DNA of 64,000 bases from Pecten maximus. Lineage: Eukaryota. The stretch's first letter is position 1; every line of letters starts with the position of its first letter. The DNA lies in contig NC_047027.1 in the NCBI RefSeq assembly GCF_902652985.1, forward strand, positions 10,044,001 through 10,108,000. Direction: 5' to 3'. The translations under genes and the position numbers were made by a program. The notes beneath the pieces are model-generated. The model had not been told where the DNA came from. It ran no database searches and saw nothing but the letters and a program-made list of their open reading frames with translations. Shown here piece after piece: positions 30,531 to 62,785 of the stretch.

Positions 30531-30533
30531 ATA

Positions 30534-39421: not shown

Positions 39422-39790
39422 GAATACACAAAAATATCACATGGACAAAATTGGCACAGTCCGTCAATACCGGGGACCAGAAAATAATTGTTCAACACGA
39501 GGTCACGTGGCAGGCAGGTGACCAGATTATAATATCAACCACAGGGGGTGTTAATTCTCAGTCTGAGACCGAGGAAATGACTATAGCATCGGTTGCTGCA
39601 GATAACAAAACCATCATGCTCACCGGCCCATTAACTTACTCACACCTTGGACGTTCAGAAGTGATTGCTGGTTTGGAAATTGATTTCAGCGCCGAAGTTG
39701 GCTTGCTTACTCACAATGTGGTTGTTCAAGGGCGCAGCGCTCCACAGTGGATAGAAAAGGCCGAAGCATGCCCAGATGGTTTTGATCCAG
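39422..39790 (+). CDS. PKHD1L1: PKHD1L1-like exon (WTKLAQ..AEVGLLTHN..CPDGFDP)
   Basis: Conserved post-G8 region. Confidence 0.95.
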
Positions 39791-40297
39791 GTATGTTTAT
39801 TGCGAAAATGAGTTAAGACTATCTATCTTATTATTTTATGTTGATAGTGTACTATTAATGCCATGTCCTCTTACGTGTCTATTGTACACTGTTTTCATGT
39901 CACTGAATGTCCGAAAGTCTGCCGGAGAACTCAAAAGATGTCGTTACATTATATGCTACATTTTCAATTGGAAGGACAAGGGGCACTTTCTCAGAATGTT
40001 TTGCATCTTCTTTTAAAGAATGAAATGTTTGTTTGACCTCAGTATCGTGCTATCACAAGACACGAATATATCGAAGCCTCCCAAAACACACAATACACCG
40101 CACGCACTTTAAACGACACTAAACCAAACCAATGTTATCCAAAATATACCTGTTTAATTCATACTGAAGTTACTATACACCCTTTTATATTTGATGCAAA
40201 ACCGCAACAAACAATACCAATTCATCCATACTTACCTTAACTGATCGATATGTTATCAAGTATTATCAGTTTATGAGTTTATTTTTCAATCATTTAG

Positions 40298-41772: not shown

Positions 41773-42041
41773 GTGATTAACATATATATAATCAAGTATA
41801 TTTTGTTAATGTGCATCGCATCAACAGTTAAAAGTTTAAATAGAAATCCAGTACAAAAACTTAGATTATATATTATTCAGTCTTTCTAGGGCACTTCTGT
41901 ATTCATTGAACTAATATTTGTTGCGTTAACTTCCCTGGGATTTAGTCCATAATTTCAATAGTAAATCATAATGCCTAAATTTTGCTGATGCTGCTTTTTA
42001 GAAGCAAATTGAGTTCTAATAAATTTATTTATTCACCATAG

Positions 42042-42207
42042 TATGGCGATTACGTCATCATAAGCCAGGCCTTGACTGGGGAACCAGACCAGTTTCAGAT
42101 AGAGAGTTCCCAACTGATCTCCGCAACAAATGAAACTTTAGATCCAGAAATACACTACCATGGAGACTGGCAGTACAACGAGACATCCGGTCTGATCACG
42201 TACTTAA
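42042..42207 (+). CDS. PKHD1L1: PKHD1L1-like exon (DYVIISQ..PDQF..GDW)
   Basis: Resembles DYVIISHNFTQNPDMF..GDW. Confidence 0.92.
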
Positions 42208-42403
42208 GTAAGTGTTTGTTTACTGTATTTCATTGATAATATCGTGTTTTTGTATGTATCTAAAGCCGTAGTTTGTTTAATCAAACTGCTATTTTATACA
42301 TTTGATCTTGTTACATGGAACATTTAACCAAAGTAATTATTGTTACCAATTATTTGATTTGATAATAACATAGATCTAGTTTTATTATTTTATCCTTTTC
42401 CAG

Positions 42404-42634
42404 TATCCTACAGACGACGAGACCGCATGTATGACAACGGTATAGAGGACATATATATTAATCTGCGAATAATAAAGTGCTTCTTCAAGGATTGTATCAC
42501 TCCAACTACACCCGTACCAACGACCGTCCAGACGACCCCTACTCCAACTACTCCCTGTGTTTACTGGTCCTCTCCTACATCATGGCCAGACAACACACTT
42601 CCGGTTGAAGGGGATGACGTCACCATTGTAAAAG
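42404..42634 (+). CDS. PKHD1L1: PKHD1L1-like exon, T/P-rich linker and start of G8-2
   Basis: CFFKDC..WS...SW...LPVEGDDVTI. Confidence 0.92.
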
Positions 42635-42780
42635 GTTGTTATGGATGTCTTCAAAAACCCATAACTCTAAACCGCTTGTGAATTAAAAAGAAAAATTCTG
42701 TATCAAATATGGATTAATTTCCTAATATATCATGAAAATAGTTCTCCCATTCTTTAAATGACCGCCAGGTAAAAATAACG

Positions 42781-44520
42781 AACAAGAGATCCCAGAGGGA
42801 TCTTGGCGCCCATCATTGAATGATCTTCATAGGTTCCATGTCAGATTGATCTTTTCTCTACTTTTCCCTTCATTTTTCATTCTTCATTCTTCAGAGATTT
42901 AACGATAATGGCTGTTTGTTTGCCAGGTTGTTTTCAGGACAGACTGGTCCAAAAATGCAATACAAGGGACCAAGGGGAACCTACTTATGAAATTTGAGAA
43001 AGATCCATTCAGTACTTTGAGAAATAGAGATAACAAACTTCAATTGTCAAAATCCAAGATGGCGGTCTGTCGGCCATATTGTTTTCCAATTGATCTCAAA
43101 ATGCGATAAGCATAATGAGGCACCAAGGGGAACCTCCATATGAAATTTGAGAAAGATCCCTTCAGTACTTTCTCAAAAATAGCGATAACAAACTTCAATT
43201 GTGAAAATCCAAGATGGTTGCCTGTCGGCCATGTTATTTTCAGATTGGTCTCAAAATGCAATATGCATAACTAGGCACCAAGGGAAACTTACATATGAAA
43301 TTTGAGAAAGATCCCTTAAATACTTTCTCAGAATTAGCGATAACAAACTTCAATTGTCAAAATCCAAGATGGCTGCCTGTCGGCCATATTGTTTTCCGAT
43401 TGGTCTCAAAATGCAATATGCATAACTAGGCACCAAGGGGAGCCTACATATGAAATTTGAGAAAGATCCTTTCAGCACTTTCTCAGAAATAGCGATAACA
43501 AACTTCAATTATCAAAATCCAAGATGGCTGCCTGTCGGCCATGTTGAATTCCGATTGGTCTCAAAATGCAATATGCATAACTAGGCACCAAGGGGAACCT
43601 ACATGTGAAATTTGAGAAAGATCCCTTCAGTACTTTCTCAGAAAGAGCGATAACAAACTTCAATTATCAAAATCCAAGATGGCTGCCTGTCGGCCATGTT
43701 GTTTTCCGATTGGTCTCAAAATGCAATATGCATAACTAGGCACCAAGGGGAACCTACATGTGAAATTTGAGAAAGATCCCTTCAGCACTTTCTCAGAAAT
43801 AGCGATAACAAACTTCAATTGTCAAAATCCAAGATGGCTGCCTGTCGGCCATGTTGTTTTCCGATTGGTCTCAAAACGCAATATGCATAACTAGACACCA
43901 AGGGGAGCTTACATATGAAATTTGAGAAAGATCCCTTCAGTACTTTCTCAGAAATAGCGATAACAAACTTCAATTATCAAAATCCAAGATGGCTGCCTGT
44001 CGGCCATGTTGTTTTCCGATTGGTCTCAAAATGCAATATGCATAACTAGGCACCAAGGGGAACCTACATGTGAAATTTGAGAAAGATCCCTTCAGCACTT
44101 TCTCAGAAATAGCGATAACAAACTTCAATTGTCAAAATCCAAGATGGCTGCCTGTCGGCCATGTTGTTTTCCGATTGGTCTCAAAACGCAATATGCATAA
44201 CTAGACACCAAGGGGAGCTTACATATGAAATTTGAGAAAGATCCCTTCAGTACTTTCTCAGAAATAGCGATAACAAACTTCAATTGTCAAAATCCAAGAT
44301 GGCTGCCTGTCGGCCATGTTGTTTTCCGATTGGTCTCAAAATGCAATATGCATAACTAGGCACCAAGGGGAACCCACATATGAAATTTGAGAAAGATCCC
44401 TCCAGTACTTTCTGAGGATTAGCGATAACAAGAATTGTTTACGGACGGAGGGACGGACGGACGACGGACCACGGACGCAGGGCGATTTGAATAGCCCACC
44501 ATCTGATGATGGTGGGCTAA
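42781..44520 (-). mobile_element. Intact HINE family 3 element with ~10 x 155-bp satellite units
   Basis: On the - strand: 5' TTAGCCCACCATCATCAGATGGTGGGCTA hairpin, (GTCC)n, homogeneous array, 3' GATGGGCGCCAAGATCCCTCTGGGATCTCTTGTT. Confidence 0.9.
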
Positions 44521-44851
44521 AAATAGATTATGGCGTTTGCTAATGTTTCCTTTGCTATGTGACACTATCCTGCACCATCGGAAAACGTTGAAAATTGAGC
44601 CTCTATCCTACGATTCTGGTTTATCTAAGCAGTTTGGTTAAAAAGGACCGTGAAACAGAATATATCTGTTTATAAAAGTAAAGTATTAAGATGACTATGA
44701 AATAATAGGCATAGTTAATTACATATCTTTATATGATAATCCATTACATATGGAATATCTAGTTGTTATAAGTTGATTATAACCAATGCTTTGGTATTTT
44801 AAGTATTTGATGTGTAGATTACCAAAGTTATATTGCGTTTGCTTTCTAAAG

Positions 44852-45124
44852 GTGTATGTATGATAGCCGATACAATGATACCAAGGCTGAATAAACTCGT
44901 TATCTTTGGCGAGCTGGAGTTTGACCATGGTCCTGTAAATGGTTCCTACCGAAACTTTACTGTCAGCGTAATGGACATTATAATCATCGGAGGGCATCTC
45001 CGGATTGGATCACCGAATGTCACTTTCCTGGGTAACATTGATATCACACTTCGTCGTTCTGGAGATCACAGCACCAGCGAGCATCTCCCAAACACAGACA
45101 TACCCGTTAACTCAAAGTCAATAG
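44852..45124 (+). CDS. PKHD1L1: PKHD1L1-like exon, G8-2
   Basis: LVIFGELEF..IIGGHLRIG..F.GNIDITLR. Confidence 0.93.
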
Positions 45125-45382
45125 GTAATTATATACGTTCATTTTAAGTATGACATTAATAAAGATAGTGATATAATTCATTTTTTATCGGTTTGAAACA
45201 CCATTAATCGACATTTGAAACATTTGAATATAATATGTATATTATTAGATCAATGCTCGTACATCAAGAGGTCTTGTTAATGTCTTTGTCATTTCTTTCA
45301 GACAGTTTTTTTATGTATGCATATATTTTCTACACATGGTAGCGTTCTTTATGTGTTCACCTGGACTCATTTCTACTTGAAG

Positions 45383-45631
45383 CTGTATACGGAGGGCTAG
45401 AAGTACATGGTAAAGATGTTGGAGTTCCATGGACGAAATTACGTACAACAGGGAACCCCGGGGACACCTCAATCACTCTAGCTGATGACGTGACCTGGGA
45501 GGTCGGGGAGGAAATTGTCGTCGCCCCGACCAGTTACGACATCTGGGAAACAGAGACATTCCGAATCACTGGAGTTTCTGACGATGGGGTGACTCTGGCA
45601 CTAAACGATTCTCTACGGTTTAGGCATATCG
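45383..45631 (+). CDS. PKHD1L1: PKHD1L1-like exon (GGLEVHG..WEVGEEIVVAPTSY)
   Basis: Resembles WQEGEEIVITTTSY. Confidence 0.94.
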
Positions 45632-45898
45632 GTTCGTGTCCACATACTATTTCACAATAAAAACAAATTGATTTGCTATTTTTAGTACTTTACTAACAAC
45701 CCTATTTCTCGATAGTTTTTTTTACACTTAACTGGCCGGCTGGGTTATGACACCTCATTCTGTAAGTTATAAAGACAATTTGCGGCACCTGCAGAAACAA
45801 AACAATATCTCAGGGCAACATAAGGTAACCTATTGATGCACGACAAAACATAGAATGCATTACGAAGGTGCTTAAATCGTTTTTTTGTGACCTTTCAG

Positions 45899-46066
45899 CT
45901 TACAGCGAAACAATAAATGGACGGACAGTAAACATGGCCGCGGAAGTTGGTCTTCTCACAAGGAATATCCGGGTATTTGGTGAAAATGTCGAGTCCTACT
46001 CCACAGAACGCCATGAAGGACGGATTGTTGTAGGGGCGACCATGGCTAGAGACGTGTTATACAAAG
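45899..46066 (+). CDS. PKHD1L1: PKHD1L1-like exon (AAEVGLLTRNIRVFGE)
   Basis: Conserved motif. Confidence 0.94.
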
Positions 46067-46749
46067 GTGATTGGTTAAACCTACATCGATACTTCATGTT
46101 ATCATTTAACTACAGTCATATGGATATGACAATGACTGGCAAAGTTAAATGAAATTTAATGACGAAAAATATGTCGTACCAAATAGGAGTTTAGTTTGTC
46201 GTCTCCGTGATCAGACAAAATTCGCAATTGACAAAAAAGAATTTACTATTGCTGCATTAAGGTAGCTACAGGTAGCTACATGTTCGCTGTGTGATTTGGT
46301 TTTAAGATATTTTATTTGCAAATATACAAATAGGATCAAAAACAAGTTTAGAAAGTTACAGTCCGTCTTCTCCCGTAAAACAAATTATGAAATAAAGGCA
46401 ATGATGATGAAAATATAGATCGTATTATGCAGTGAATGTTCCCCGCATATTTGTGATAAATGTATGTTATATCGTTTACAGTTGACTAAAGAATACGATT
46501 AACCTATAGTTTCATGTTATGCAGCCATAACATCTGAATACACCCATCATAAAGAGCTTCTGGGTTTATTTTAGGACACATCTTTCCCCCTTAAACGTAT
46601 AAAATCGGTAAAAGCAGATGCATTGTATGTGTTCACTTTGGACTAATATACATTTAATTATCACAATGTATTAAGATAGATCTCACTGATATATCTCCTC
46701 CACGTGTGATCTACTTTATATCATCATAAACATTAAACTTTCACTTCAG

Positions 46750-46944
46750 GTTTTGCCCGCTTTAGTAATGTCGCGTTTGTGTATACTGGACTGACGTATC
46801 GGAATGCGGAGAGAGTAACTGACAAGACACCGTCATCTGTTACAAAGTGTACATTCCACCAGGTCTTTTCTCGGGCGATTGGAGTATACGGGACTATAGG
46901 TGTCTCCCTGAACGACAACGTTATCCACCACTCTGTATCACCAG
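46750..46944 (+). CDS. PKHD1L1: PKHD1L1-like exon, PbH1 region 2 (ARFSNV..AIGVYGT)
   Basis: Resembles ARISNV..AIGVFGT. Confidence 0.92.
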
Positions 46945-47886
46945 GTAAGATCCGTTGTTAAAATTAAACCACCCAGGTTGTTATATTTTATGAGTATCCC
47001 TATTTTCCTAAATGGCATTTGCCCCAATATTATCACGTCGTTTAAAATGTTTTCAGTGTTTTTGTTTTTGTTCATCGAGCAATATTATGGTTCTCTTGTT
47101 TCACGAGCAGGAGGCCGCCCTTAAATGACCTTAGCTTATCGAAAGGACGTTAAACAATTCTAACTAAACCAAACGAAATTTTTCCACGATAATATTACCG
47201 GCTTGCAATTACCTTATATGCACAACTATATACAGAGCAGCATTAGCTCTTAGCCATAGAAATGTACTTATGTCAGAGGAGTAACAATCCACAAGATATT
47301 TCCAGTTTACAGTATATTAACGTGAGAGTATGATGCTTTAACAAGTAAAAGTTAGGTTCAATTATACTTCAATTTTCTCTCACGAGCCTTTGTTCAAATA
47401 AACCCATGAAGTTATGTTTATATCTTGCTCTTGTTTAATCGACTTTTAGTTTATATTATGGTTTCATTTAAATTGTGTTGTTTGTCTGGATAATTGGGTA
47501 ACCAAACCCACTTTTAATAGCTGCGTGCTATATTTTGACCCTTTTCACGGGAATTTTCATTTTTCTAACTTCACTTTACATTCAATATTCGGCATTTTAC
47601 CAGGTTACAAATGTAATGTGACATATACTTGTTTGTGTTGTGAACATTCTTACTTGTAACAACTATAGCCATGTGTGTTACATGTTAGCTACTAAAGTTG
47701 TTGAACTTTCGTATAATAATTATCCAACCATATAATAATTTACTATGAAAATAGAACAATAGAATTATACGAGAATAATAAACATTATTCAATAAGCCAC
47801 GGTACCTATAATTATACATAACCTTGTTTTAAACATTAATTGAAAACAAAATGGATCTTAATATCTGTATCTAAATTAAATTCCAG

Positions 47887-48537
47887 CTATCGAAACACAA
47901 TCCCGGAAATCAACTATTTCACGTAACCTCATCATATTAGTCTATGGCGGTATCAGTACCTATCATGGAGCCATACTTGCCGTCCAGTCAACGGACCTGT
48001 CACTTGTGGAGAATACAGTCAGCGGTGCTGATAGAGTAGCGTATCACGTTCCTGGTGTCGAATGTGGTCGAACGTCTGCTTCATTTGGAAACGAAGCCCA
48101 TAGTTCATCGATAGGTTTGGATTTTTCGTCTCAAGGCAGTGTTCAAGGCACATGTTATGCAATATCGAATTTCTTCATCTGGAAATGCAGCAATATAGGA
48201 ATATATTATAACAGCCGACAGTCTGTAGATATTAGTGGGGTTGTTTTGGCGGAAAATACCCTTGGAATATACACAGAGGTTTATGGACCAAACCCTGTTG
48301 ATCATTTATACTCACCAAAGTTCTGTACCATCAATAACAGCCTGATAATCGGAACAACACCGTCATATAGCTGTACCACAGACCAGGCCAAATCTACTGG
48401 ATTAAGTAATCAGATTACTGAAGGGCACGTTGGCATGACGTTTACTTCCTTCATGCAAGATAATAACGGGTACACTCTAAACAGTCTAGCTGCACTTAAT
48501 TCCTACCCTGCAATCATGGGAGTGACGAATATTCAGG
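47887..48537 (+). CDS. PKHD1L1: PKHD1L1-like exon, PbH1 region 2
   Basis: Open 651 nt in frame with ORF 48006; NEAHS, IWKC..GIY, SLIIG. Confidence 0.93.
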
Positions 48538-49277
48538 GTAAGTACGGCGTCAGGTTTTTTTCAACACATACCTTAACTATAATATTCGTTAAATTGCTGA
48601 AAACCACAATGAATATATCAACTAATGTATTGTTAATGATTTAAGCATATACAAACCATACACATTTTCAGAAAAAGAAATGATACAATATATGGCATTG
48701 CAGTAGAGAATCATGTACGCTTTAACTGTATGGACACTTTGGAGAAAGCGGGCTGAATACCGGCGTGTTCCAATCAAGTATTACGGGCTATATAAAACTT
48801 TGAATAATTCTTTATGATGCTCTGAATAGCGTATTTCTATATCTGTCACATCTGTCTGTCTCTCCCTTCGTTTGTTGTCGCCCAAATGAGACTGAGTTAC
48901 TGCGATAACGGCGCAACAACAGCCAAATGCAACACCGAGATGTAAGATGTAAATTCTCGTTAAAAATATCCTTAAAATGTACGAATATCAATGTAATTAC
49001 TCAATGTAAAGATCACTGTTGAAATTAGACTTTGATATTCTAATTTTACAAACGTATTAGCCTACACAATGCAATTTTATATAGACGCTGGTGGACATGC
49101 ATCTGACATACTTTGGGATTGTTCATACATCAGTGTGGTAAGATTGTTGTTGTGGAGTTACTGTTTTTTGCGTTACTTTTGATCCTGCGAGTGTACTAAA
49201 TAACAAAATACTAATATAGCATGGTTTATCAATTTTCTTTCATATGCTAACTTTAATATCTGTGTTTTCTTTATCAG

Positions 49278-49440
49278 ACGTAACGTTTGCGCATTTTAAG
49301 ACGGTTTGTGGTACAAAGGACATTATGCTGACAACAAACAGATGGAACGATGATGGACAACACCCTGTGGAAACCAATAGAATCACCAAGTTCGACTCGG
49401 ATAACGATTCGTACTTCTTTATCCATCGACCAAACATTGA
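49278..49440 (+). CDS. PKHD1L1: PKHD1L1-like exon (VTFAHF..QHP..FIHRP)
   Basis: Conserved motifs; phase 1-2. Confidence 0.93.
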
Positions 49441-49989
49441 GTACGTTTACATAGAGTATATATGCGCGTGTCAAATTGAAAATTATATCAGTTCAATGTG
49501 AATATGATATAAATGTATTTCTATATCTAGCTAGCGAGTGTAACCTGCTGCGTGCAAAGTAAAGATTTATGCAATGACACTACTGACTAAAAACATTGTT
49601 CTTGATATATATATTTATGATATGAAAAAAAGGAACAAGATATTTCAGTAATTTCATTGTTGATTTGAAATCAATTTTTTTAATGTATTTAATCTTTATA
49701 CGAGAGACGCCCGCGGACCTGTAAGATTGCTGGGTGTGGATCTTAACCTTTTCAAAGATATAACCTAGAAACGAAGTCAAGACTCAATATGATTGTGTTT
49801 AAAGAAACCTATAGTTCCATGGGTTGGTGAAAAATCCCTTAGCTAATTTTACAACAGGATTGTGTTAATCTCTTGATTCTATATATTGACATTGGGTGGG
49901 GATCCGACCGGTTTTCAAGACATTAAAGACAGTCTTCAAGGGTAGGGAAAGACCCCACATTCTACTTTTACAACATGAATGTGTTAATA

Positions 49990-50440
49990 CTTTGAGGCCA
50001 AGCAATATTGCTAAATGGACCCCTTTTGCCCCCGTCCCCCAATTCCATACCGGGTCATTCCCATCATTTATATAAATCTGAATCCCAGCCTCCTGGGGAT
50101 GCTACCACTTAAATATCATACATAGCTTAGGTCGGGGAAAACGTTGTTAATATCAATATTGCTAAATGGACCCATTTTGGCCTCGCCCCACAGGCACCCG
50201 GGGTTCAGTCCCATTATTTGTTTAAAAGCTAATTCCAGCTACCAATGGATGTTATCACTGGACTATCAATGTCATACATTGCTTAGGTTCATAGAAGTCG
50301 TTTATATCAATGCTGCCAAATGGACCCCTTTTGGCACTGCCCTCAGGCCCCTGCGGGGTAAGCTCCATCGTTTTTATCAATATCTGGTCATGATTCCTTC
50401 AACATTTAGTTAATTTCTGATCAGTGGTTCTTCGGACCAG
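49990..50440 (-). repeat. Degenerate ~153-bp tandem units, probably an old HINE array
   Basis: GCTAAATGGACCCC/ATTTTG motif at ~50010, 50161 and 50315. Confidence 0.55.
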
Positions 50441-50817
50441 GTGATATTATAAGGTGGCACGGTATAAATAAGTGTAGATATCCATTACAAGAAAACTTTT
50501 AAATAACGGACCATGAAATGGTCGAATTTGAGGTCAAGTAATCGCGAGTGCAGACATTTCAAGCAAAATAGTAATTATACTGAAGAACAGAAAAGAGTAA
50601 AACCTTTCTGAATGTAGAAACTCAGTTTCAACAACCAGGAATATCACCATTCGGCTTACGATCTATCGACCAAAGCATCTATGTACGGGACGATTCAATA
50701 AGTCTTTGTTTTTTCTTGCGATATCAGGCTGGTGTGAAACACCACCAAAACGTGTTTATTTAAATAAAATATATAATAATATATGAAATGTGTAACAAAA
50801 ACATTTATCTCGAATAG

Positions 50818-51050
50818 CAAAATAAACCCAAGTGACTGTGTTGACATGGATTGTGATGGACTGAAGAAAGCCCTTATTAAGGACGTAGACGGATCTTTCC
50901 TGGGAGAGAAGGGAGCTGTTCTATCACAGTCGGAGTGGGAGTGGGATGGCGATCCGAGAAGGGGTCTCGGAGACTATAGGATACCGCGAGAGATGCTGAC
51001 CACTCTGTCTGGAGAACGTATTAACGTTAGTACCATCGCACCACACAAAG
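50818..51050 (+). CDS. PKHD1L1: PKHD1L1-like exon (KINPSDCVDMDCD..GDYRIP..APHKG)
   Basis: Hallmark fibrocystin-L motif. Confidence 0.96.
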
Positions 51051-51211
51051 GTATGAAACTGTTAAACTTATCAGTTGTTGATATGACGTTAAGCAGTATA
51101 AACGTGTACTTATTGCTGATAAAAGTAAAATCCCAACATGATCCAGATACAGGATCAAAATCAAATTGAAAATATACTCGTTGTATATCTGCATGTTCCT
51201 TTTCACGAAAG

Positions 51212-51457
51212 GTATAATACGAAACGACAAGTGTCAGTACCGGACTGCCTGGCAGGCCTACGAGTGTCACGAACTGGACTATGAGATGCTTATAATAGAG
51301 AGTTTGGACGCGGACACGGAGACCCGGCGTCTGTCACCTGTCGCTTTATTAGGGGACGGTTATGTCGACCTCATTAATGGACCCCAGGACCACAGCAGTT
51401 GTAGTCAAGGTTTCTGCCGAAAACGTCTGTCTACGTTCATGTCCATAGTAGCTACAG
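51212..51457 (+). CDS. PKHD1L1: PKHD1L1-like exon (ESLDADTETRRLSPVA..GPQDH)
   Basis: Hallmark fibrocystin-L motif. Confidence 0.96.
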
Positions 51458-51742
51458 GTAAGTTTTTTGATTCGCCTACCCATTTTGCATTGTTAAGGAA
51501 TTATTTCATCAAGCAATAAAAAGTACTCACCTGTTTTCTGTATAACGTTAACAACGTGTTGCGCGAAGTGTTCCACCCAAGAACCAGTTCCGACATAACA
51601 AAAAAACGTGAAATATTAGCCTCGTGAAAATATTGCTACACTCTGTTTTGAATATGGTGATTAATCCGGATCGTAACTGGAGTTGTTGTTTCTTTCTTTA
51701 TATATTAAATGTGTAGTGATTATGAAAATTATTCTTTTACAG

Positions 51743-52273
51743 GAAAAAACTACTCGCTATACTTCTCGACTACAAGCCCACAGACGCTAAGGCTCTTTCT
51801 GTTGAACTCCGATGATAGCCAAAGCGTTATTATAGGTATATGGTACTCCGAGTCAAACCGCCGAGATGTGTACGTGCGGGATGATCTAGTGTTAGCAAAG
51901 AATGCAAGGATGGTGAATGGAAAGTATATAGTTGATCGGCCAACACGACTCGGGGAATTCAATCCTGAAAAAAATGACGTCACAGGGGCTAATTTCTTTG
52001 ACCGAGACACTAACATTCTGTATGTGTTAGTCAAAGGAAGCAGTCCGGTTAAAATAGTAACAAATCCTTCTTTAGTTGTGTCATTTCAAATACCTGCATT
52101 GACACCAGAGGAATTTTATGGTGAGGCATTGGTCCAAAATCTAGCCTTGTTCTTCGATGTGCCGCCGGAGAAGGTCAGAGTGGTCAACGTTGTCAGGGAG
52201 ACCGGAAGGAGGAGAAGAGACGTTGATGGGAACATCAATATCGTGATAGAAATTGCTGATCCGCCAACTACAG
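51743..52273 (+). CDS. PKHD1L1: PKHD1L1-like exon with RRRR furin site
   Basis: PQTLRLFLLN..NLALF..RRRRD..IEIADPP. Confidence 0.95.
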
Positions 52274-52384
52274 GTAATTAACGTTTTCATTGTGTTATTT
52301 TAACCTCAAAGTTTTTTTGTATCCATCAGCTGCATATAAATATAAAATCTTGTTCAATCAATGAAATTGTACTTTTTATTGAAG

Positions 52385-52677
52385 GTGGAAATGCTACTGT
52401 TAACGAAACATTGACAACAGATGCATTGCTGAACAGGTCGGCAGTGTTCATAAACACAGTTCAGGGAGGAGGAAATATAAGTAAAGCACTGAATCTCAGT
52501 ATTAGTGGCATTGCTGTGTCTGAACCTCATATTGACAATGGGTTGAATTCACCACGTGCTGACACTTCCGGTAAAATCACTGTTCCAAAGAGCATGAATA
52601 TATCCGTACATCTTGATCCGTCGTATGAAACTGCGCTCTTTCATATACAACCTTGCTTGCGCGTGTTCGATATAGAG
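52385..52677 (+). CDS. PKHD1L1: PKHD1L1-like exon (..QPCLRVFD)
   Basis: Phase 1-0; corresponds to the QPSVKATD region. Confidence 0.88.
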
Positions 52678-52964
52678 GTAAGTTATTAGTTTGTAAATTA
52701 TGTATACATCTTTCCAAATCGAAGCATAACTTGGTTCAGTTCATGACATCTGAAGTGAAATCGAAGTAGGTAATGCATGTATATTGGCATTTGAGGCAGA
52801 AGGCAGAAAAGCCCAACATAGAGTTACCGTTCTTGGTAATTGTGCAATCTGAAACGTTTTATGTTATCTATCCTATTTGTACAATTTAATAACATTGTAT
52901 ATCATGTTTGCTTCGCGTGCAAACAACTTCATTGTATATCATAATATATATGTTATCTCTCTAG

Positions 52965-53333
52965 GATGAACCAATGGAAAAACTAGGAAGTGTTGGAGAT
53001 CCTTGGCGTATCGCAGCTTACCTAATATCAGGAGCTGACCGGTCTGTCAAGTTACAAGGAACAACATCGGTTGATGTAGTCGGGGGATGGGCCAACTTCT
53101 CGGATCTCGCGTTATCACATTACGGAGAAGACTTCACCATTCATTTTAATAAGACTTACCCTGATAATGCAATCGATTTGAGAGTTCTGTCTGATAGTTT
53201 CACTATAAAGAGAATCAGTATCGGACTAAACATCATATCAACCAATATTACGCTTGTAAACAATGCAACAACATCGAGGATCGAACTGCTTGACAACACC
53301 ACACAAAATCGAATCAGCAATATTACGTGGAGG
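52965..53333 (+). CDS. PKHD1L1: PKHD1L1-like exon (LQGTTSV..GWANFSDL)
   Basis: Resembles LSGNTTI..WANYTDL. Confidence 0.9.
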
Positions 53334-53587
53334 GTAAGTAATTGTTAACATTAAAATGGTGATATATCTAACTAGTTTTTAAGCATACGCAATGTCTGGT
53401 AATCAACACACTTTAGGTTTATTTGAAAGCTATACTGTAATTATCAACTATTGTAAATGTCTGTATTGAAAGCAATGGTTTATGCAAGAATATAGTAATC
53501 TTTGGACACTGCGGATTTGTGATAGTATCCGCTAAGTGTGTTGATTAAAACTGATGTTGAATACAGAATTATTTTGATAAATTGTAG

Positions 53588-53987
53588 GGTCATACGTGGA
53601 CTGTAATGGTTGACCTCGATAATAGCGCGGACAACAGCGGAAATATGACCGGGTCTAAGCAAGCGACATTCAATCAATCAACTGGAGACGCCATCTTTAA
53701 TGACCTGGTGTTCGACCAGATTGGTGTTTATATCCTGAAATTCCATGTAAAGTCCTCACCAGAGGAGTATGACCTGTATGGAGAGTTTCGGGTCCAAGTA
53801 CTAAGTGAGGTCCAAGTACATCTACATAACAGCAATAATGCTACCTCGACAAATATATCTCTGACTTTTAATGAAAGTTATGCAGATGTTGTTGGAAAAA
53901 GAGACGAACACTTCGGAGCCATGGTCGTCAACAGACTCGCCAGAAAATATAACGATGTATATTTTGATCGAATAACAGTGATACCAG
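53588..53987 (+). CDS. PKHD1L1: Exon: second Ig-like module plus N-terminal half of SEA-like domain
   Basis: Open 400 nt, phase 0-1; G.A.F.DL..Y.L.F pattern, then ISLTFNESY...ITVIPG. Confidence 0.85.
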
Positions 53988-54449
53988 GTATATGAACTTC
54001 ATTTGAAATGTTAACTAATGTAACAGTATTGTGTGAATGATACAACTGCATTATCTTCTCTTCCATGTTTTTCTTCATATAAACAGTGTATGGTAATCAA
54101 CCTGCGTGATTTGTCAGACGAATACTTTTAGGATTACGTTTTTTTTTTGTCTTTTTCAAACGCGTTCTTTGACAATGTCTTACTCTAGTCAATATGATTG
54201 AATGGTCTTTTCCTGTGTAAAAGGCCGAGTACAGCCAAGTCGAAGAAGTAAACCATTGTCCATTGATAATTCATATGAATGTCGCGTGAATAATATATAA
54301 ACGTTATATCATTGTCATATGTACATCACTGTTGATATGTTATAAGAATACATATGAACTGTGCTAAATTTATTTATTATGGTTATATCAAAAAATAAAA
54401 TACACAGCAAAGAATAAATTTATATCATGTTTACCAAGTTAACTATACA

Positions 54450-55066
54450 CCATTCTACCATGTTTGCTTTGCAACGCCAGTTTTGATTGGTTTAAAACCA
54501 TGTATTATTTTCCAATAATACACGCTCGTGCCAATAATACACGCTCGTGAGTCACGGCTGTTACAACTTTATATATCTAATATTCACTTATTTCTTGTAA
54601 AGTTACAATAGCCGAGTGGGTTAGTCTTCCATTAAATTTTTATCACGACGCAAGTTCGAATCCTACGGAGGCCCCCTTTTTTTCTTTTTTTTTCTTTATC
54701 CCTTTTTTTTAAATTTTCATAATCAATGCCATATTATAAATGCTCTTGATCGTAGTACTGTAGTGCCTGTAAAGAAATGTATATTTCATCAACAAATAAT
54801 GCAATACTCAAGAAATAAATTACAAGGTTTTCCCGGGGTTTCTTTGCTGTTTTTCTATTAGAAAGAGGTCGATCTCAGAAACAAACAGTACATGGTAGAA
54901 TAGAAATAATCAACTTTGACTCGTGTATTGTTGCAGGATATACAACGAGGACGAGGATATTTTGCAATTAAATTAATAACGAAGGCTGTTAATTTAATTG
55001 CAAAATATCCTCGTCCTCGTTGTATATCCTGCAACAATACACGAGTCATCGTTAATTATTTCTTAA
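54450..55066 (-). mobile_element. Long-hairpin non-autonomous element (Crypton-like architecture) with internal tRNA-like segment
   Basis: Near-perfect palindrome 54904-55062 with CGAAGGC loop; ATTCTACCATG (54453) paired with CATGGTAGAAT (54891) as a second inverted pair. Confidence 0.7.
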
Positions 55067-55188
55067 GTACAATATAAATAGTGAGGAAAACTAATCCATA
55101 GAGCGTTATTTTGTTATATATCATATTAATCTTATTCGTTTCATTTACATATCTAAAAGTAACAATCATCCAATATGGCTTTTTACAG

Positions 55189-55341
55189 GAAGTATCGTGG
55201 TATTGGTAGAGATCACTCAATATTCTGAGGATACAAATACAACTCTACAGGTTATGGCTATTTTCCTGGAAAGTCAAATCTTCATCTTTAATAGGGTTAT
55301 ACTGAAACCACCAACGCTAAGGGGTAATAGCCAGAAACTTC
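55189..55341 (+). CDS. PKHD1L1: Exon: C-terminal half of SEA-like domain (GSIVVLVEI..)
   Basis: tttacag|GA AGT ATC GTG GTA..C|gtaagt, phase 1-1. Confidence 0.8.
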
Positions 55342-55620
55342 GTAAGTATCAGCACACCTATTAGATAGTTATACATTTCCACATTTCACACTTTAATATT
55401 ACCTCTTTTTTATTCAAAATACCGTATTATGTTTGTAATTCGATAAAAAATCAACAAGAAAGCATATGTTAACATATCACCATGCCTCCTCCATGCGTTG
55501 TGTTTATTACATTTGTGTTTGTTACAATTGATATTGACATTGATGATACGCGTATATGATATACATTGTAATGAATACTACGATACTAGCATTGACACTT
55601 TTATGTATATGTTATACTAG

Positions 55621-55657
55621 AATCTAAAGACAACTTCATCTACGCCAAACACTAAAG
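55621..55657 (+). CDS. Candidate 37-nt cassette exon (frame ambiguous)
   Basis: actag|...AAG|gtaagc; in-frame TAA if joined after 55341, T/S-rich NLKTTSSTPNTK in another frame. Confidence 0.45.
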
Positions 55658-57554
55658 GTAAGCTCATTCTTTCACCCTTTAAATACCCTCACTCTACATA
55701 GATAAGCGGCAGGTAAATTGCATATCTATGTTAAAAAGGTATCTGAACCAGTAAACGTCGAGGGAAAGTAATCAAAAATGAAAGTTTTTGTTTTTTGTAT
55801 ATATCCCTACTTGAAAATTATTCAACAAGATATCTAATGCATCTAATGCTGTAAATAAACCTTTTCCTAAAATACATCACGATAGACCGGGAATACCAAG
55901 CGAGACTGAAAACATCGGATTTTATCCGAAGAATGTGATATAGGCCATATCATGAGTTTGATAAAAAAGAAATTAAATCCTGGGATCACCACAAATTACT
56001 CTCGATTTCTGTAAATTAAACGCAAACATTTCATTTCCGAAGCTAAAATTACATAAACGGATACTCATAATGATTATACGTAGCAAAAGATGGACATTAC
56101 AATTGATACAAATTAAACAATTGTAAATGGTAGTTTTATAATTTACTTTACATATTGTTATACATATACTTTCTACCACTTCATTTAAAATGGAAACAAT
56201 TCAATAACATATTAATTTATAGATTTATTATACATCTATCGGATATATCCCATTTTATAATATATACATAACGCACAATCCAGACACTCACACCACGGGT
56301 TAAGATGGGAGCTTAGGCAAGTTTTAATTAGGACATAGTGACCACCGGACAGAGGAGCTAAAACAGTTACAAGAGACTAATAAAACAACTGGACCTACAT
56401 TTACTTTGATTATATAATATAAAGATATAAAGTTACTTTTATATTCAAATAGGTTTCATAACAAACGGACATTTAATAATGTATGCTATGTTACTGAATT
56501 AATAGAATATTAAGAGTTTTATATTTATATTTTTTATTTCTATATTTTTTTTTATTTTACTAGTTTCAATATATTTATTTAAACAAATTCTCAATAAATG
56601 TGCATACATACAACATGTACTTTAAATTACAACTAGCAAGAAATAGTTTTACTTGCCAGCTACTATTAATGGTGAAATAATACCATAGGAAACAAGGTGT
56701 CCTCTCTCTTCTATAGTAGAATATGAAGTGCAAAGAAAGCAAGAAAAGATAGTGTCTTAGGAAGAAATTAACATGTTAGAGATTCCTCTAACCGTAGGTC
56801 TCTGTCCGTGTCACATGTCATCACATGAATAATTAAAAATAGAATGCACTTGTATACATGAGTCACTACACATCATTTAGGGTAGCACAGGCCGATGTGT
56901 CATGAATCATACTTACATAGCATACAATATGGCTCGCACAAGTACTACACTATTTAGTTTACAATTCAAATATATATATATCCCTTTCACACAAATTGGT
57001 TAGCAACACTTAACAAATAGGCACATAACAGCTATCAATATAATCTAGAAGATGAACACCTATACACAACAAATAAATGGTTGGGTTACGAAAATCTTTA
57101 CATTCACAATATTTCCCAACCTGAAGAAAATGTAAAAAAAAAAAAAAAAAAAAAATATTATCTTAATACGAACACGTGATATACATACTGTGATCGGTTT
57201 AGGCTCGAACACGGCACTTTTTACTATACAGTTTTCACAAAAAAAGTATATTTCTCATGTTGGTATATCCTGATCTGAAGAAGATTGTTTCTGAATGCAA
57301 GTCACGATCATAACGTTCCTATTTTAAGCAAATAATTTCAACTGAATGTTACCTAACTGTATTTAAGTGGAATTTTACAATATAGACTGGTAAACGCCAG
57401 CTCTCTCTAGTGGGAAAACCACGGATTGTAAAATGTACAACCTCCCTAAACCCCTTTTATTTGTAGCTTTTGATTCTAGCCTATTTCTATCAGGTTTGGT
57501 GAAAAACAATAATTACAATAAGTACATAGGCATTATAAACCACTTCGTGGATTT

Positions 57555-57950
57555 GTTTGGTTTGGTTTAATATTGTTTAATCTCATAGTAATAGCTTAGG
57601 TCATGTAAGGATGGTCTCCTCTGTATGCAAGATGCTTGCGTGAGGTGTATGGGTGTGCATTTAAGAAAGTTGTAGTATGTTTGTTTTTGTCTCCATGTGC
57701 TTCTGCGGGACTGATGGCGACTTTATCGTGCTACCTTGCTGAAGCATGCTGTCAAGGACGACCGCCAGGACACCCTACCTCGTCACATTATACTGACAAC
57801 GGGCGAACCATTCGGCCCTTGTTCATAAGGTTGAGAGCAAATACCGATTTTATAGACATATCTCGACCAGGGAACAAAACCCCAAACCTTCCTCACAGGG
57901 GCCAACGATCAACAAAAATGGCAAAAGTTAGGCAATGTCAACGGAAATTA
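57555..57950 (-). mobile_element. Near full-length SINE copy
   Basis: Reverse complement shows head, core TTGTCAGTATAATGTGACGAGG and tail CCTTACATGACCTAAGC..(AAACC)n. Confidence 0.7.
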
Positions 57951-58776
57951 ACTGATTGTACTGATTGTAATGGGGGACCACTACAGATGTCCCCCAAACA
58001 CCCCCAGTCATACCAATGTGTTCGGTATCACTCAAACCTATCTTTACCAGTTTTCACTTAAATCTGAAAATTTCCTTATTACGACTAATCAGAGGCCTCC
58101 ATTTCGTTACCGTGGAAACCAAACTTCCCGAAAATGCTACCACGTTATTTGGCATCCCTAAAAGCCGCGATGTACCATATTTTACCGAAATTGGAGACTT
58201 AAATCCAAAGTCGGAAATTTACTTCGTTTAGGGAACATGAAAATAACCCTTTCAAAATATATGTCACAGTGCCACAATTATATAGTCCGACAGTCGATTG
58301 ACGCACGACGACTGGCAAAAACTACACTCTGTATATAACGTGAAAGAAAAACTTTCCTTGATTGATATTATCAGAAACAGAATGGATCAATTGCTGTTTG
58401 CATGTTTAAAAATTACACATTTCCTGACTTTATTCGGGTAAATGAATACATAACATTTTTTTACGATTTCTGTCATAAGTATCAGTGCGGTTGGAATAAA
58501 CGTTAGTGTGCAACGCTGCACCAATATTCTATTGCGAAGAAATATATAACTTTTAGTAAAAATAAAAAATAAAAAATACAATATAAATAAATCATGACAA
58601 TAGAATAGACGAAAACATAATACATGTACAGAGCACATCTGACATCGTATGACTATAGTAGGAACTACCTTTAACACACTGACAGGACACCCAATCAGTA
58701 TATAACAGAGACAACACACACGAACGAGACAAAGAAAATAGCCGCACTCCGATCTATAGAGTAACGTATGCAAGGG

Positions 58777-60298
58777 TACGATGGCCGACAAGAGCCTGGC
58801 AAAATGAAATGAAAAAACTGTAACACTTTTTTCAATGGTACAGTTTTTTCATATCTTTTTGTACCATAGAAAAGTGTACCATGGTACAAAAAGATGTGAA
58901 AATTCAAATCATTTTGTACTTTATGTGTTACAGAAAGATTATAAACTACTTAGGAAAAAACACAGCTTACATTCACATGTTTATGTACCAATAGCCGGTA
59001 TCAGCCGGCAAATGATGTGAAAGGTTTTGTACCGCGTTACACTTTTTTTATTTTTTTTTGTACCATTTTTTGGTACAAAAAGATATGAAAAAAGTGTACC
59101 AAGAAAAAAAAGTTACAGTTTTTTTCATATTTTTTTGTACCATCCGTGGTACAAAAGATGTGAAAAAACTGTACCATCAGAACATCGGAATGTCGTTATC
59201 CAACACCATGATCAGGGCTGACCCCGAATAGCAAAGGTTTGATAACACCGTCACAACAAGCCGCAAAGTTTATTAATCACTTCTGAGGACACAAATCGAG
59301 TCGAAACTTTGGTGTAAGTATTGGGGTGTACCTTAGGGGCTAAAAATTATTGAATTAAACCTGTATAATGTCGTCATTTCTATTTTAGATATAAACAATT
59401 GAACGATTGAAAAAACATTACAGCATTTCTCTAATAGTCTTACAAAATATATATATTCCTCGATGTCTTCAGTAAAACCAACTATATTTTACGAGTGGGG
59501 CTAATATTTCGATATTTGCGCATTCGTGAAAAATATCAAAATATTAGTCACATGTGTGTGAAACACATTTGGTATTATTGAAGATGCTATTAGATATGCT
59601 GTTTATTACATTTTCATAACAAAATATACCGGATCATCTTTTAACTTTTTCCATTGTCGTTTGTATGCAGGGTTTTGATTAAATATCACTTTTATAGAAT
59701 GATTACTTTTCGATGTTTCACTGCTAAAAGCGTAATAACGAAACCCATCGGTGTCTTTTACTCGAGAAGTTTTTATTACGTAATAAAATTGATGGTCCCA
59801 TTTCCCCAAAACGGACCCCATCGGTGTCTTTAGTTTCTTTTACTCGAGAAGTTGAGGCAGATTGGATACATTGACAATGTAAGTACAAATAATTCGTCAC
59901 TGGAAAAATTATTAAAGACGTTTTTAAAATGAAAAGTAAGTTAAAAAAGACAACTGATCATTTTGCAAGCCCAACATCAATATACATGACGATTGGATCA
60001 TCCAGTAGCCAGACATTCCGGATACTAATTGGCAGGCTATGTGATGACAGCTTTATCTGGGAGTCATTTGTCAAACTCAGTAACCCTTATGTCTGGCCGT
60101 TTCATATGTTTCTGTACCATGGCTGTTTTCGGCCGCTTTTTGGTACAAAAAGATAAAAAAGCAACTGACTCATTTCAACTCCGCTTTCACATCTTTCTGT
60201 ACCATACAATAGTACAAAAAGATGTGAAAAAAATGTACCATGAAAAAAAGTGTTACAGTTTTTCAATTTATTTTGCCAGGCTCTTGTCGGCCATCGTA
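58777..60298. mobile_element. Non-autonomous DNA transposon with TAC...GTA termini and 6-bp TSD (IS3EU-like)
   Basis: TIR TACGATGGCCGACAAGAGCCTGGCAAAAT; CAAGGG duplicated at 58771-58776 and 60299-60304; many GGTACAAAAAGAT subterminal repeats. Confidence 0.85.
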
Positions 60299-62072
60299 CA
60301 AGGGGGAATACGCGTTTTATCAACAAATTACCAAATGCGACTGAAATGTTCCTAGTGAAAGTTAAAATATAAACCTTCCAATAGATATAAATAGTTAGCT
60401 AGTTTTGCATCGTAACCAGTAATATTCACACATTAATTTAAATTTGTCCACACTAAACTGTCTGACAGAAAAGAAAAAAAAAACATAAAAACAAACAAAA
60501 AACCCAACCAAACGACAAGACAGTAGGTTACATATTAAAACAACTAATAAATATTATTATTGTCGCGCCTTTATATGAAATTGTGTTGTGTTTGATACAC
60601 CATACAATAATACAAAGTAATTGTTTATTTGTCCAAACATACATATTACATCATTTGTCATATTTGAGACCCGAATGTACAGAGCTCGACTTCTTCTACC
60701 AACGATATCCATATTTCGTGAATATTTTTTATTACATTTTGATTTTCCTGAACTATACGAATAAGCTAAGGTTGAACTATGCACGGCTAACATGACTATT
60801 GCACGGCCACGTTCGAACTCTTGAGCACTCGTGACGTTTCGGAATTTAGTCCTACCCTTTCAAGCGTCTAGGTTACTCAGATGTGAACACTGTCAGATTC
60901 TGTTATGGCGACTTATAGTCCTACAGGAAAGTCAAGATTTTAGTGACTCTAAGCGTATGTACTAGCCTTCGGCCTCGTGCAATAGAACATCGTCGATCAA
61001 GCTAGGATTGCACATACATCCGTGATATATTTGGTTAATATAAAGCTGCGGGGAAAAGGTGCGAGTTAAAAAAATGTAAACATAATGTTTTGGTCGTGAT
61101 AACAGCATTACGCTAAATTCGGTTGTGCGAATTTCATATTTTTATATGTTTATATGTTTTCTTCGGAGCGCCGATTCACTTTATTACTAATGTTAAATGT
61201 ATGTTACCATAAAAAAATCCTTAAAATAGGTAACAGTATATTATTAATTATGGGTAATTGCTTTAATAATTATGAACACAATTCGACAAAAAGTGTATGA
61301 TTTTATTTATTTACAGGGTTTAGAATATTTTAATCATAGTCTAATACATGTATATCTCTTAATGTATGTCTCCCATGTAGTAAAATGCTTCTATTTCACA
61401 ACTGGTGCATTTCGATAGAAATGTTGTACATGAATTACTTAAAATGAATATGTATAAACTACTTGAAGGGACAATGGAAAACGAATTGATCCGCCTTTCT
61501 TAACAACTCTTTCTGCGCTCTTTTTGCTTGTTGAGATGCCCCGTTGACGCACATTTCTATATTAATTTCAATTTTAGCAAGTAAGTTAAAACTTGATAAA
61601 AAGTATCAAATGAGTTTCGTCTTGAAAAGGTAAGCATGGTACCACATTGATGATTCTTCTTTCTGCACCAGGTAAGTGAATGATGATTATGAAATACAAT
61701 GTGTATTGCATGAAACATGCAAGCTTGTTAGTAGCTTATTCTTGCTTTGTAATCCATGTTCCGATTTATGACATACATGGATAAAGGTTCAACAGTACTA
61801 GCTTTAATGGGAAAATGTTATATAAACATGTTGATACATTTTCAAATCGATTATATCAAACAAGCTTTACAGATTTTGCCTCGCAATCATTAGCCCTCGT
61901 TTTCGCTATCTCATCAGACAAATAAGACGTTTTTTAACAGAAATCAGATGTAGGGTTCAAATAGAGGACCATTTCGACAAAAATACTCAATTGAGGGTTA
62001 CGATCATGCAAACATGCATTAGGTTCAATTTTTGCTGTACTTGAATTTGTCTTGCATGATTTCTCTTAATAG

Positions 62073-62291
62073 TGAGCTCGACAGAACAACTCACAACAAC
62101 ATCCAGCAAACAAACAAGTGCTAATGAGAGCTATACAGGAACCGAAACAACGCCTTCGCCTTCCGCAAACAGCCAACTCTCCTTTTCCATGATCATTGCC
62201 ATAGTTATTACTCCAGTGGCCGTTATGTTCGGAGTCATATTCATTGTTATTATCTGCAAATGCAAGAGAATACGGCAAGACGAAAGATCAG
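62073..62291 (+). CDS. PKHD1L1: Exon: S/T-rich stalk, transmembrane helix and CKCKR juxtamembrane segment
   Basis: MIIAIVITPVAVMFGVIFIVII hydrophobic stretch followed by a basic stop-transfer signal; phase 1-1, compatible with the donor at 55341. Confidence 0.75.
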
Positions 62292-62453
62292 GTAAGTTGA
62301 TCTTTCCCTGGAAAATATGTATGTAACGACATAAATATACTCACGGATAATTGAAGGGATGGGGAATGCTCATGTTTAAAATCAAGATATGTAGTTGTGG
62401 AAAAATAAATTAGCCTACCAACAATGCCATTATAACGTTTTATATTTCCTCAG

Positions 62454-62785
62454 AATACCTGACGAAAACTTCGACAGTAAGTTCTGATGACTTTACCAGG
62501 AGTAAGGGCGAAAATATCCGAAACGAGTATGCTTTCCAGTCTGCTGTTGGGATGACTTTTAAGCCACACCACATTCCGCGTATACAAACCAACACAGAAA
62601 ACAGGTCATTTACTCCATCGTTTGAGATTGAACATCAACTACCATCGTCGGCAATGGGAAGTTTTCGGTCGTCTCGGGCCGACAATTGGAGAAGGCCGTT
62701 TACGGAATATGTCGATGACAAAACATCTTCATTCAGTGACGAAATGCTCTCGTCATTACAATATTATACTGGAAAAAGAAATTAA
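62454..62785 (+). CDS. PKHD1L1: Terminal coding exon: cytoplasmic tail
   Basis: tcctcag|AA TAC..., open frame continuing into ORF 62552-62785, TAA at 62783; AT-rich 3'UTR with AATAAA (e.g. 63371) follows. Confidence 0.75.

Follow-up and report, generated by a model that had tools for sequence, protein, structure and literature searches.

The 64,000-nt stretch of Pecten maximus DNA analysed here (NC_047027.1, forward-strand positions 10,044,001 to 10,108,000; hereafter the window, to which all coordinates refer) carries a fibrocystin-L (PKHD1L1-like) gene whose product is predicted to bear two SEA domains near the membrane. The first (SEA1) is likely cut by furin at an RRRR site and the second (SEA2) likely cuts itself at the motif G/SIVV, where the slash marks the putative scissile bond; SEA2 appears to be ancestral and to have been lost in tunicates and vertebrates. 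We hold this composite interpretation to be likely, and the strength of its parts differs. The C-terminal order of the protein is SEA1–Ig1–Ig2–SEA2–stalk–transmembrane helix (TM)–tail, Ig1 and Ig2 being immunoglobulin (Ig)-like domains (Table 1). A preliminary description of the same DNA had already predicted both cleavage sites, and we retain them.

The matched part of the gene extends over 4770..62785 on the plus strand, and its 5' end possibly lies further upstream. From its residue 232 on, the 4452-aa Argopecten fibrocystin-L P0010 aligned collinearly with 4770-53989 in tblastn, so that the gene occupies nearly the whole window; the Argopecten orthologue P0002 was also collinear across it. 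Through these two proteins the gene shows the TIG/IPT and two G8/β-helix regions that mark the family upstream, and Pfam found two G8 and two CEMIP β-helix domains in P0002. Among 159 candidates of 234-2000 residues, the sole match to exon 53588-53986 was the NCBI model P0001 (fibrocystin-L-like, Pecten maximus, 771 aa), at 100% identity.

The G/SIVV motif is assembled by splicing. Exon 53588-53987 ends in ITVIP and the first base of a Gly codon (phase 1), and exon 55189-55341 opens with the remaining GA of that codon followed by SIVVLVEI, with canonical GT and AG at the borders; the preliminary description had correctly observed that this codon is split by an intron. The paralogues share this intron position, as many other genomes apparently do. 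When the two halves were spliced in this way they scored 68.4 bits on the SEA2 profile, versus 47.0 for the join made in the NCBI model and 45.8 for read-through into the intron. The N-terminal half reached 45.2 bits against a profile built without this gene's protein, and exon 55189-55341 alone reached only 12.7 bits on the profile of the C-terminal half. The resulting GSIVV conforms to the MUC1-type pattern G/S[VI][VI][VI], and the ESM Atlas returned a SEA cluster at 0.86, which we treat as a lead only.

The paralogues repeat this arrangement. At least ten loci on NC_047027.1 match exon 53588-53986, with nine SEA1 matches at the same loci, and phase-1 acceptors in 10/10 of them give GSIV, GSIV, GSIK, GSII, GSII, GSII, GSIV, GSII, GSVI and GSVV. 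In a control for chance, exactly one phase-1 G/S[IV][IVK] acceptor with 40 open codons was present within 8.7 kb downstream at every one of the ten loci, compared with 0/10 on the reverse strand and 0.5% of 1000 shuffles; K joined the pattern after one paralogue had been seen, and 9/10 loci fit S[IV][IV]. The nine paralogue exons scored 22-62 bits on the C-half profile, whose training set includes at least one paralogue (P0012).

Table 1. Features in the C-terminal region of the scallop fibrocystin-L gene (window coordinates)
Feature	Position	Strand	Basis
Last exons	51743-52273, 52385-52677, 52965-53333, 53588-53987, 55189-55341, 55621-55657, 62073-62291, 62454-62785	+	AG/GT ends throughout
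SEA1, a divergent SEA domain spanning exons 51743-52273 and 52385-52677	52066..52527	+	AlphaFold2 model of homologue P0009; boundaries transferred by alignment
RRRR furin/proprotein-convertase site, β2-β3 loop of SEA1	52207..52218	+	sequence
Ig1, Ig-like domain shared with vertebrates; GWANFSDL at 53085-53108	52585..53210	+	P0009 model residues 352-466 match Ig-fold chains
Ig2, second Ig-like domain; GDAIFNDL at 53684-53707; exons 52965-53333 and 53588-53987	53211..53809	+	P0009 model residues 466-580 match Ig folds
SEA2 N-terminal half (β1-α1-β2), ending in first base of motif Gly codon	53843..53987	+	AlphaFold2 models of homologues
Phase-1 GT-AG intron splitting Gly codon of G/SIVV	53988..55188	+	sequence, RNA contigs
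SEA2 C-terminal half (β3-α2-β4); putative nucleophile Ser at 55191-55193	55189..55341	+	profile score, RNA contigs
One extra base in reference allele (+1 frameshift)	55332..55334	+	153-nt exon versus 152 nt in tandem paralogue
Ser/Thr-rich stalk exon, 37 nt	55621..55657	+	RNA contigs: joined to previous exon (X1, X2) and TM exon (X2)
Stalk and transmembrane exon, TM helix ~62189-62257	62073..62291	+	translation; RNA joints; in P0001
Cytoplasmic tail exon to stop codon	62454..62785	+	joint 62287->62450 in 4/4 runs; P0001

On the evidence of models of its homologues, SEA2 very probably adopts the ferredoxin-like SEA fold. The AlphaFold2 (AF2) model of the Mizuhopecten protein P0009, which has 64% identity to P0001 across 594 aligned positions and was folded with 58 rows, places SEA2 at β593-604, α613-627, β632-639, β642-651 and α653-669 with short strands to 686, and the predicted local distance difference test values (pLDDT) are 91-96 per block. 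The motif falls in a tight hairpin, with a two-residue turn (E640-G641) between β2 and β3 and S642 opening β3; G641 and S642 are two of only three near-invariant columns among the 58 rows. The distant 217-residue homologue P0114 has the same topology with a three-residue β2-β3 turn. When P0114 was compared with 48,161 chains, its six best SEA2 rows were all SEA domains (Z 7.1-8.4): MUC16 at Z 8.4 (root-mean-square deviation, rmsd, 3.0; 88 aligned) and again at 8.0, mouse 1ivz at 7.5, Gpr126 at 7.5, a TMPRSS SEA at 7.2 and TMPRSS6 at 7.1. Counted over the whole search, SEA domains take five of the six highest rows (Z 7.2-8.4). The SEA2 region of P0009 matched TROP-2 (Z 8.3, rmsd 2.7, 92 aligned). 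These models and the fold search bear out the preliminary description, which had proposed a SEA fold with the MUC1-type G/S[IV]VV motif in the right loop and had suggested AlphaFold as a check. MUC1 and the C-terminal SEA of dystroglycan, which is another membrane-proximal Ig+SEA tandem, were not in the 50 rows listed, an absence that is uninformative, the cleaved domains probably having been deposited as two chains. Other searches contributed little: profile A3 against PDB sequences had no relevant match (lowest E 0.0028, for a bacterial protein), Foldseek with the small model gave no match at E up to 0.001, and a further structure search was dominated by antibody chains.

The RRRR site, whose position agrees with the preliminary description, lies in SEA1. 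In the AF2 model of P0009, SEA1 comprises β214-221, α230-241, β248-255, a loop, β270-277, α295-310 and β325-329, that is, βαββαβ, and the poly-Arg loop falls between β2 and β3, with a low-confidence stretch at 257-261. The preliminary description had placed its SEA segment after the furin site; SEA2 is indeed there, but the furin site itself lies inside an overlooked first SEA domain, and the frameshift of the reference (see below) had escaped notice as well. The scallop gene shows the family trait of an Ig-like domain placed after a SEA domain that carries Rx[KR]R, and we consider it highly likely that furin cuts SEA1. The second G.A.F.DL module of the preliminary description is also real, Ig1 and Ig2 being homologous (hhalign 98.5%, E 2e-15, 105 columns), but it does not start at 53588 as stated: Ig2 begins at ~53211, in the previous exon, and the junction 53333-53588 is present in RNA contigs. 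An origin of SEA2 as a duplicate of SEA1 was also considered, and hhalign of the two domains was not significant (0.3%), giving no evidence for it. An RNA joint at 53271->53643 (X2-X4) might have indicated exon skipping; its ends are non-canonical, and its simplest source is the 86%-identical tandem paralogue.

The Gly and Ser of the motif are conserved well beyond scallops. Profile A1 was built from nine paralogue exons and stops either at the Gly or shortly ahead of it; in a set of 1.84 billion proteins it matched 212 with E up to 0.001. Of these matches 150 were listed, and 30 were looked up by name, 14 of which had no informative name; the named bearers of SEA2 come from bivalves, a gastropod, an octopus, the nemertean Lineus, the annelid Owenia, the brittle star Amphiura, the hemichordate Glandiceps and amphioxus. 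Of 144 SEA2 profile matches, 63 covered one half only and were dropped, leaving 81 two-half modules, which include near-duplicates and three gene models without the motif exon or its start. Among these, Gly (74/81) and Ser (75/81) are the two most conserved residues, ahead of the best Phe (69/81), and GS or GC is present in 73/81, even though A1 held no C-half sequence for this motif. Cys residues occur in both halves in 7/81 modules. Of 50 short open reading frames (ORFs) that extend to the motif, 49 contain its Gly, after which 48 diverge into unrelated sequence; we infer that such ORFs are calls of an exon together with the adjoining intron, and the position of the intron would then be old.

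The distribution of the module bears on its origin. We examined the best 120 of 564 matches to an amphioxus protein, and all 120 had SEA1, with an R-x-[RK]-R site in nearly all. Ig2 and SEA2 were present in 12/14 amphioxus proteins (the other two being truncated) and in 1/1 hemichordate, 1/1 echinoderm and 5/5 bivalve proteins; they were not found in any of 95 vertebrate proteins (four truncated), three tunicate proteins (one truncated) or one unnamed protein of this set. No vertebrate or tunicate protein scored above 4.5 bits for SEA2, the Ig1 profile matched 95/95 vertebrate proteins, and in complete vertebrate and tunicate proteins the anchor follows Ig1 directly, with no space for Ig2-SEA2. 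The preliminary description had seen the module as added by this gene to a vertebrate-like protein. Its absence from vertebrates (0/95) and tunicates (0/3), together with the position of the scallop gene in a pectinid-only paralogue clade, would fit a scallop- or mollusc-specific addition, but amphioxus, hemichordates, echinoderms, a nemertean and an annelid carry this same module, identically placed and bearing the same motif, which refutes an addition at that level; the short ORFs, 49 of the 50 with Gly at the motif position and 48 then diverging, also point to a shared intron. We therefore give scallop- or mollusc-level addition hardly any credence. Since the module occurs in protostomes and in early-branching deuterostomes on the accepted animal tree, its loss is the simplest reading, and comparison of the sequences makes it highly probable that Ig2-SEA2 was ancestral in bilaterians and was lost in tunicates and vertebrates. 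The survey of lophotrochozoans that the preliminary description had suggested found the module in other molluscs, a nemertean and an annelid.

Several observations weigh against the interpretation of a doubly cut receptor with an ancestral SEA2. The AF2 models are those of the homologues P0009 and P0114, not of this gene's own SEA2; the Z values are modest and in the range counted as common, with other ferredoxin-like folds following at Z 6.9 and below, and it is their consistent ranking that constitutes the evidence. Pfam SEA (PF01390), which the preliminary description had named as a check, matched 0/7 exons, did not match P0001 and matched 0/24 homologues at E up to 1; SEA1, a published SEA domain, is likewise without a PF01390 match. 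The C-terminal half in this gene is the weakest fit of the ten paralogues (12.7 bits versus 22-62). The strict motif is present in only 44/81 modules; it has been lost in octopus, in Owenia and from the second copy of P0007. In a gene tree made by a quick method (49 rows), vertebrates and tunicates form separate clades among SEA2-bearing rows, the backbone support is below 95, and there is no named non-bilaterian to root the loss; because of this weak backbone, one loss and two losses are indistinguishable. Finally, the frame of the reference after exon 55189-55341 runs into a stop at 55653-55655, ahead of the TM exon.

By analogy with characterized SEA domains, we consider it likely that SEA2 cleaves itself at the Gly-Ser bond. 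SEA autoproteolysis proceeds through an N-to-O acyl shift. Autoproteolysis and furin cleavage share the β2-β3 loop of SEA domains, and the halves remain associated until they are pulled apart by force (PMC6954182). Strain in the hairpin drives cleavage, which is only slowed in Ser mutants (PMC10556640), and in IMPG2 the second SEA is cut completely at GSIVV (PMC10877459; these and all papers below are cited from excerpts). An alternative is that SEA2 is a genuine SEA fold serving as an uncut spacer, its Gly-Ser kept for a tight β-turn, so that furin at SEA1 would make the only constitutive cut, as in vertebrates. The degeneracy of the motif in several lineages (37/81 modules off the strict pattern) would suit such a spacer, as would the presence of MUC16 and Gpr126 SEA among the best fold matches, the zebrafish Gpr126 SEA being without a furin site (PMC6954182), and the strain required for cleavage is not evident from a motif alone (PMC10556640). 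However, the Ser is conserved above any core hydrophobic residue (75/81 versus 69/81 for the best Phe), one orthologue (P0003) has Cys, another nucleophile, in its place, and the predicted two-residue turn is the geometry that strains the bond; we accordingly regard the uncut spacer as unlikely. The orthologue in question, P0003 of Mizuhopecten, reads GCIVF at 1547-1551 and offers a natural variant for thiol-based self-cleavage.

We propose that self-cleavage at SEA2 would operate as follows, as inferred from MUC1, IMPG2 and GPR110/116. Folding of SEA2 would strain the Gly-Ser bond and the Ser hydroxyl would attack it, so that the chain would be cut early in the secretory pathway with the halves held by their shared β-sheet; furin would then cut SEA1 in the Golgi. 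The mature protein would consist of three non-covalently held pieces: a head of roughly 4000 residues, a 373-residue middle of SEA1C-Ig1-Ig2-SEA2N, and a membrane piece of SEA2C, Ser/Thr stalk, TM and tail. The middle piece has 18 sequons and a single Cys and SEA2 has none; with no Cys in SEA2 and one between the sites, SEA2 would be without a disulfide tether. Pulling or shear on the head might then part SEA2 and, because the Ser/Thr stalk lies on the membrane side of SEA2, leave a mucin-like stump; this last step is speculative, and we put forward force-triggered release of the ectodomain, again by analogy, only as a possibility.

Transcript evidence was taken from six different runs, all as assembled contigs, whose depth cannot rank expression; 24 runs were listed, four being mapped on 49000-63500 (X1-X4, one study) and four on 55090-55720 (three studies). 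The preliminary description had made its SEA segment depend on the 53987-55189 junction. A joint at 53984->55186 (GT..AG, cut +3) is present in X1 and X4 and in paralogue contigs, but for this gene it has 20 letters on the short side, fewer than the 31 that the bridging rule requires. One type of contig (X1 record 2 and X2 record 6) differs from the window at 2/146 bases and includes 20 nt of the upstream exon end; both records join to 55621, and record 6 continues through the TM and tail exons. Another type (X1, X2, X5 and X6) matches the tandem paralogue at L009, with X1 and X5 reaching well into the upstream exon, and paralogue contigs bridge the same junction with loose ends of 35 (X1), 255 (X5) and 119 letters (X3). 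The GSIVV junction is thus well bridged for the tandem paralogue and weakly, by 20 nt only, in this gene. A third type (X1 record 1, window 55186-55333) has 14/148 differences and continues into an exon absent from the window, and may represent a divergent haplotype or an unassembled copy.

The same contigs bear on the broken frame of the reference: those of X1 and X2 have nine letters where the window has ten, and the membrane anchor is in frame in RNA contigs and out of frame in the reference. We believe that the extra base is probably an assembly error rather than the mark of a true null allele. Were the reference allele truly frameshifted, it would be null or would yield a secreted ectodomain lacking the TM, and the receptor with two SEA domains would come only from other alleles or paralogues. 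The exon join of the reference, which gives a stop before the TM, is compatible with this, as is NCBI's model P0001, which omits exon 55189-55341 with its GSIVV and also skips the next exon; the C-terminal exons of 4/9 paralogues are frame-broken as well, which could mean a decaying family. By contrast, the contigs with two differences in 146 nt are in frame, and one of them extends across the exons for TM and tail; the reference string resembles a merger of two in-frame RNA forms, and frame breaks in 5/10 copies equally fit residual indel error. A truly frameshifted allele appears improbable to us for these reasons. We also considered whether a micro-exon within 55342-55620 could restore the frame; none was seen on reading the sequence, and the RNA contigs join directly. 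The breaks in the paralogues lie in the merged loci L024 (~2106), L020 (~6400-6650), L022 (~3200-3300) and L010 (~1350-1670), and the five affected copies reflect either assembly indels or decay of family members.

Comparison with vertebrate proteins locates the difference at the C-terminus. Human fibrocystin and PKHD1L1 have a SEA domain with Rx[KR]R and then one Ig-like domain (bioRxiv 10.64898/2026.10.19.758525; PMC13424714; PMC13566292; PMC13755561; PMC11527881), and the excerpts of PMC10225672 and PMC10579373 hold nothing further on this domain. Vertebrate fibrocystin-L and fibrocystin share with the scallop protein the TIG repeats, the two G8/β-helix (TMEM2-like) regions, the SEA with Rx[KR]R in its β2-β3 loop and one Ig-like domain, as far as the cited excerpts describe them, whereas Ig2, SEA2 and a long cytoplasmic tail come next in the proteins of the scallop and other invertebrates; the distance between the SEA1 match, measured from its end, and the TM is ~370 residues in invertebrates versus ~145-175 in most vertebrates. 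The furin fragments of human fibrocystin are disulfide-tethered (bioRxiv 10.64898/2026.10.19.758525), unlike the scallop gene with its one Cys between the sites. Within the best 120 of 564 matches, sharks, rays and coelacanth have a strong TM and a tail of ~30-70 residues; amphibians, teleosts and mammals have a weak C-terminal hydrophobic end, which fits the glycosylphosphatidylinositol (GPI) anchor reported in PMC13566292.

SEA2 resembles MUC1, IMPG2 SEA-2 and GPR110/GPR116 in having G/S[IV][IV][VA] in the β2-β3 hairpin of a membrane-near ferredoxin-like fold, here predicted; IMPG2 likewise has two SEA domains, the second cleaved at GSIVV (PMC10877459). It differs from this type in having no PF01390 match and in that its cleavage is a prediction, and while MUC1 has a glycosylated disordered region outside its SEA (PMC10556640), the scallop protein has a Ser/Thr stalk between SEA2 and the membrane. 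SEA1 is comparable to Notch HD and the GPR126 SEA, in which a convertase site occupies the same β2-β3 loop; the scallop protein would carry a furin-type and a self-cleaving-type SEA in series, where GPR126 combines a furin SEA with a GAIN domain (PMC6954182). The Foldseek list for the P0009 model was headed by PCDH15 EC-MAD12, CDH23 MAD28 and SorCS2, which also have an Ig-like and then a ferredoxin-like domain near the membrane; these alignments are multi-domain with rmsd 14-24 Å and speak to arrangement only. MAD12 has been equated with SEA (PMC11527881).

Taken together, SEA2 looks like a divergent SEA domain of apparent MUC1 type that is not a member of PF01390 and is ancestral rather than added. 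We found no second SEA domain of fibrocystin-L in the literature searched and provisionally regard it as new, although Pei and Grishin 2017 or supplements could already note the domain. Annotation hides SEA2 because Pfam misses the domain, the intron splits the motif and the NCBI model omits the exon. Ectodomain shedding of fibrocystin (ARPKD, the autosomal recessive form of polycystic kidney disease) and of PKHD1L1 (deafness DFNB124), and the purpose of the furin cut, are still open (bioRxiv 10.64898/2026.10.19.758525; PMC11527881). An ancestral second SEA carrying a self-cleavage motif suggests regulated, membrane-near release as an old design of the family and the replacement of one route in vertebrates. 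We tentatively speculate, with rather more doubt than confidence, that fibrocystin-L in ancestral animals was a receptor split twice, with a furin-cut and a self-cut SEA acting as fuses in series; load would release its giant ectodomain with no need of a sheddase, and a mucin-like stump would stay behind. The self-cutting fuse would have been lost on the chordate line that led to tunicates and vertebrates, the latter relying on ADAM shedding or a GPI anchor instead. If this is true, the invertebrate proteins would be a direct model for force release of fibrocystin ectodomains. With ~220 residues, the Ig2-SEA2 unit makes a cheap test of an ancestral self-cleaving SEA2 feasible.

The scallop paralogues vary further. 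This gene belongs to a pectinid-only clade (Shimodaira-Hasegawa-like approximate likelihood ratio test, SH-aLRT, 100), and the fibrocystin-L expansion is pectinid-specific in part. A tandem copy, 86% identical in the searched exon, lies 76 kb upstream, and there are two inverted or clustered pairs. The Ser/Thr stalk spans hundreds of residues in some paralogues. P0007 of Argopecten carries a second Ig2-SEA2 at 4581-4792, after a Thr-rich spacer and with a degenerate motif (GNVIV), and Ig1-Ig2-SEA2 is repeated in P0103 (505-828). The G.A.F.DL Ig module is likewise repeated 3-13 times in large proteins that lack SEA2 (P0026, P0034, P0042, P0050, P0077, P0079, P0084, P0119, P0126 and P0154), which look bacterial, judged from their N-termini.

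A few other features of the window were recorded. At 49437-50818, RNA contigs show two junction forms, one with three replaced letters; P0001 starts only downstream of this region, and the upstream reading frame of the reference may also be broken. At 62070-62073, RNA contigs have three extra letters at the TM-exon acceptor relative to the window, with the frame kept, which suggests an allelic NAGNAG-type acceptor. The intron that splits the motif contains, at 54889-55076, an inverted repeat with 88-nt arms, 90% complementary, and a 12-nt spacer; it resembles a miniature inverted-repeat transposable element (MITE) and has high depth from repeat-derived contigs. Within another intron, 18377-18961 is a 195-codon open frame, which we take to resemble the N-terminal part of a Tc1/mariner transposase. 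A tandem repeat array, visible as repeated minus-strand translations, occupies ~9300-10600.

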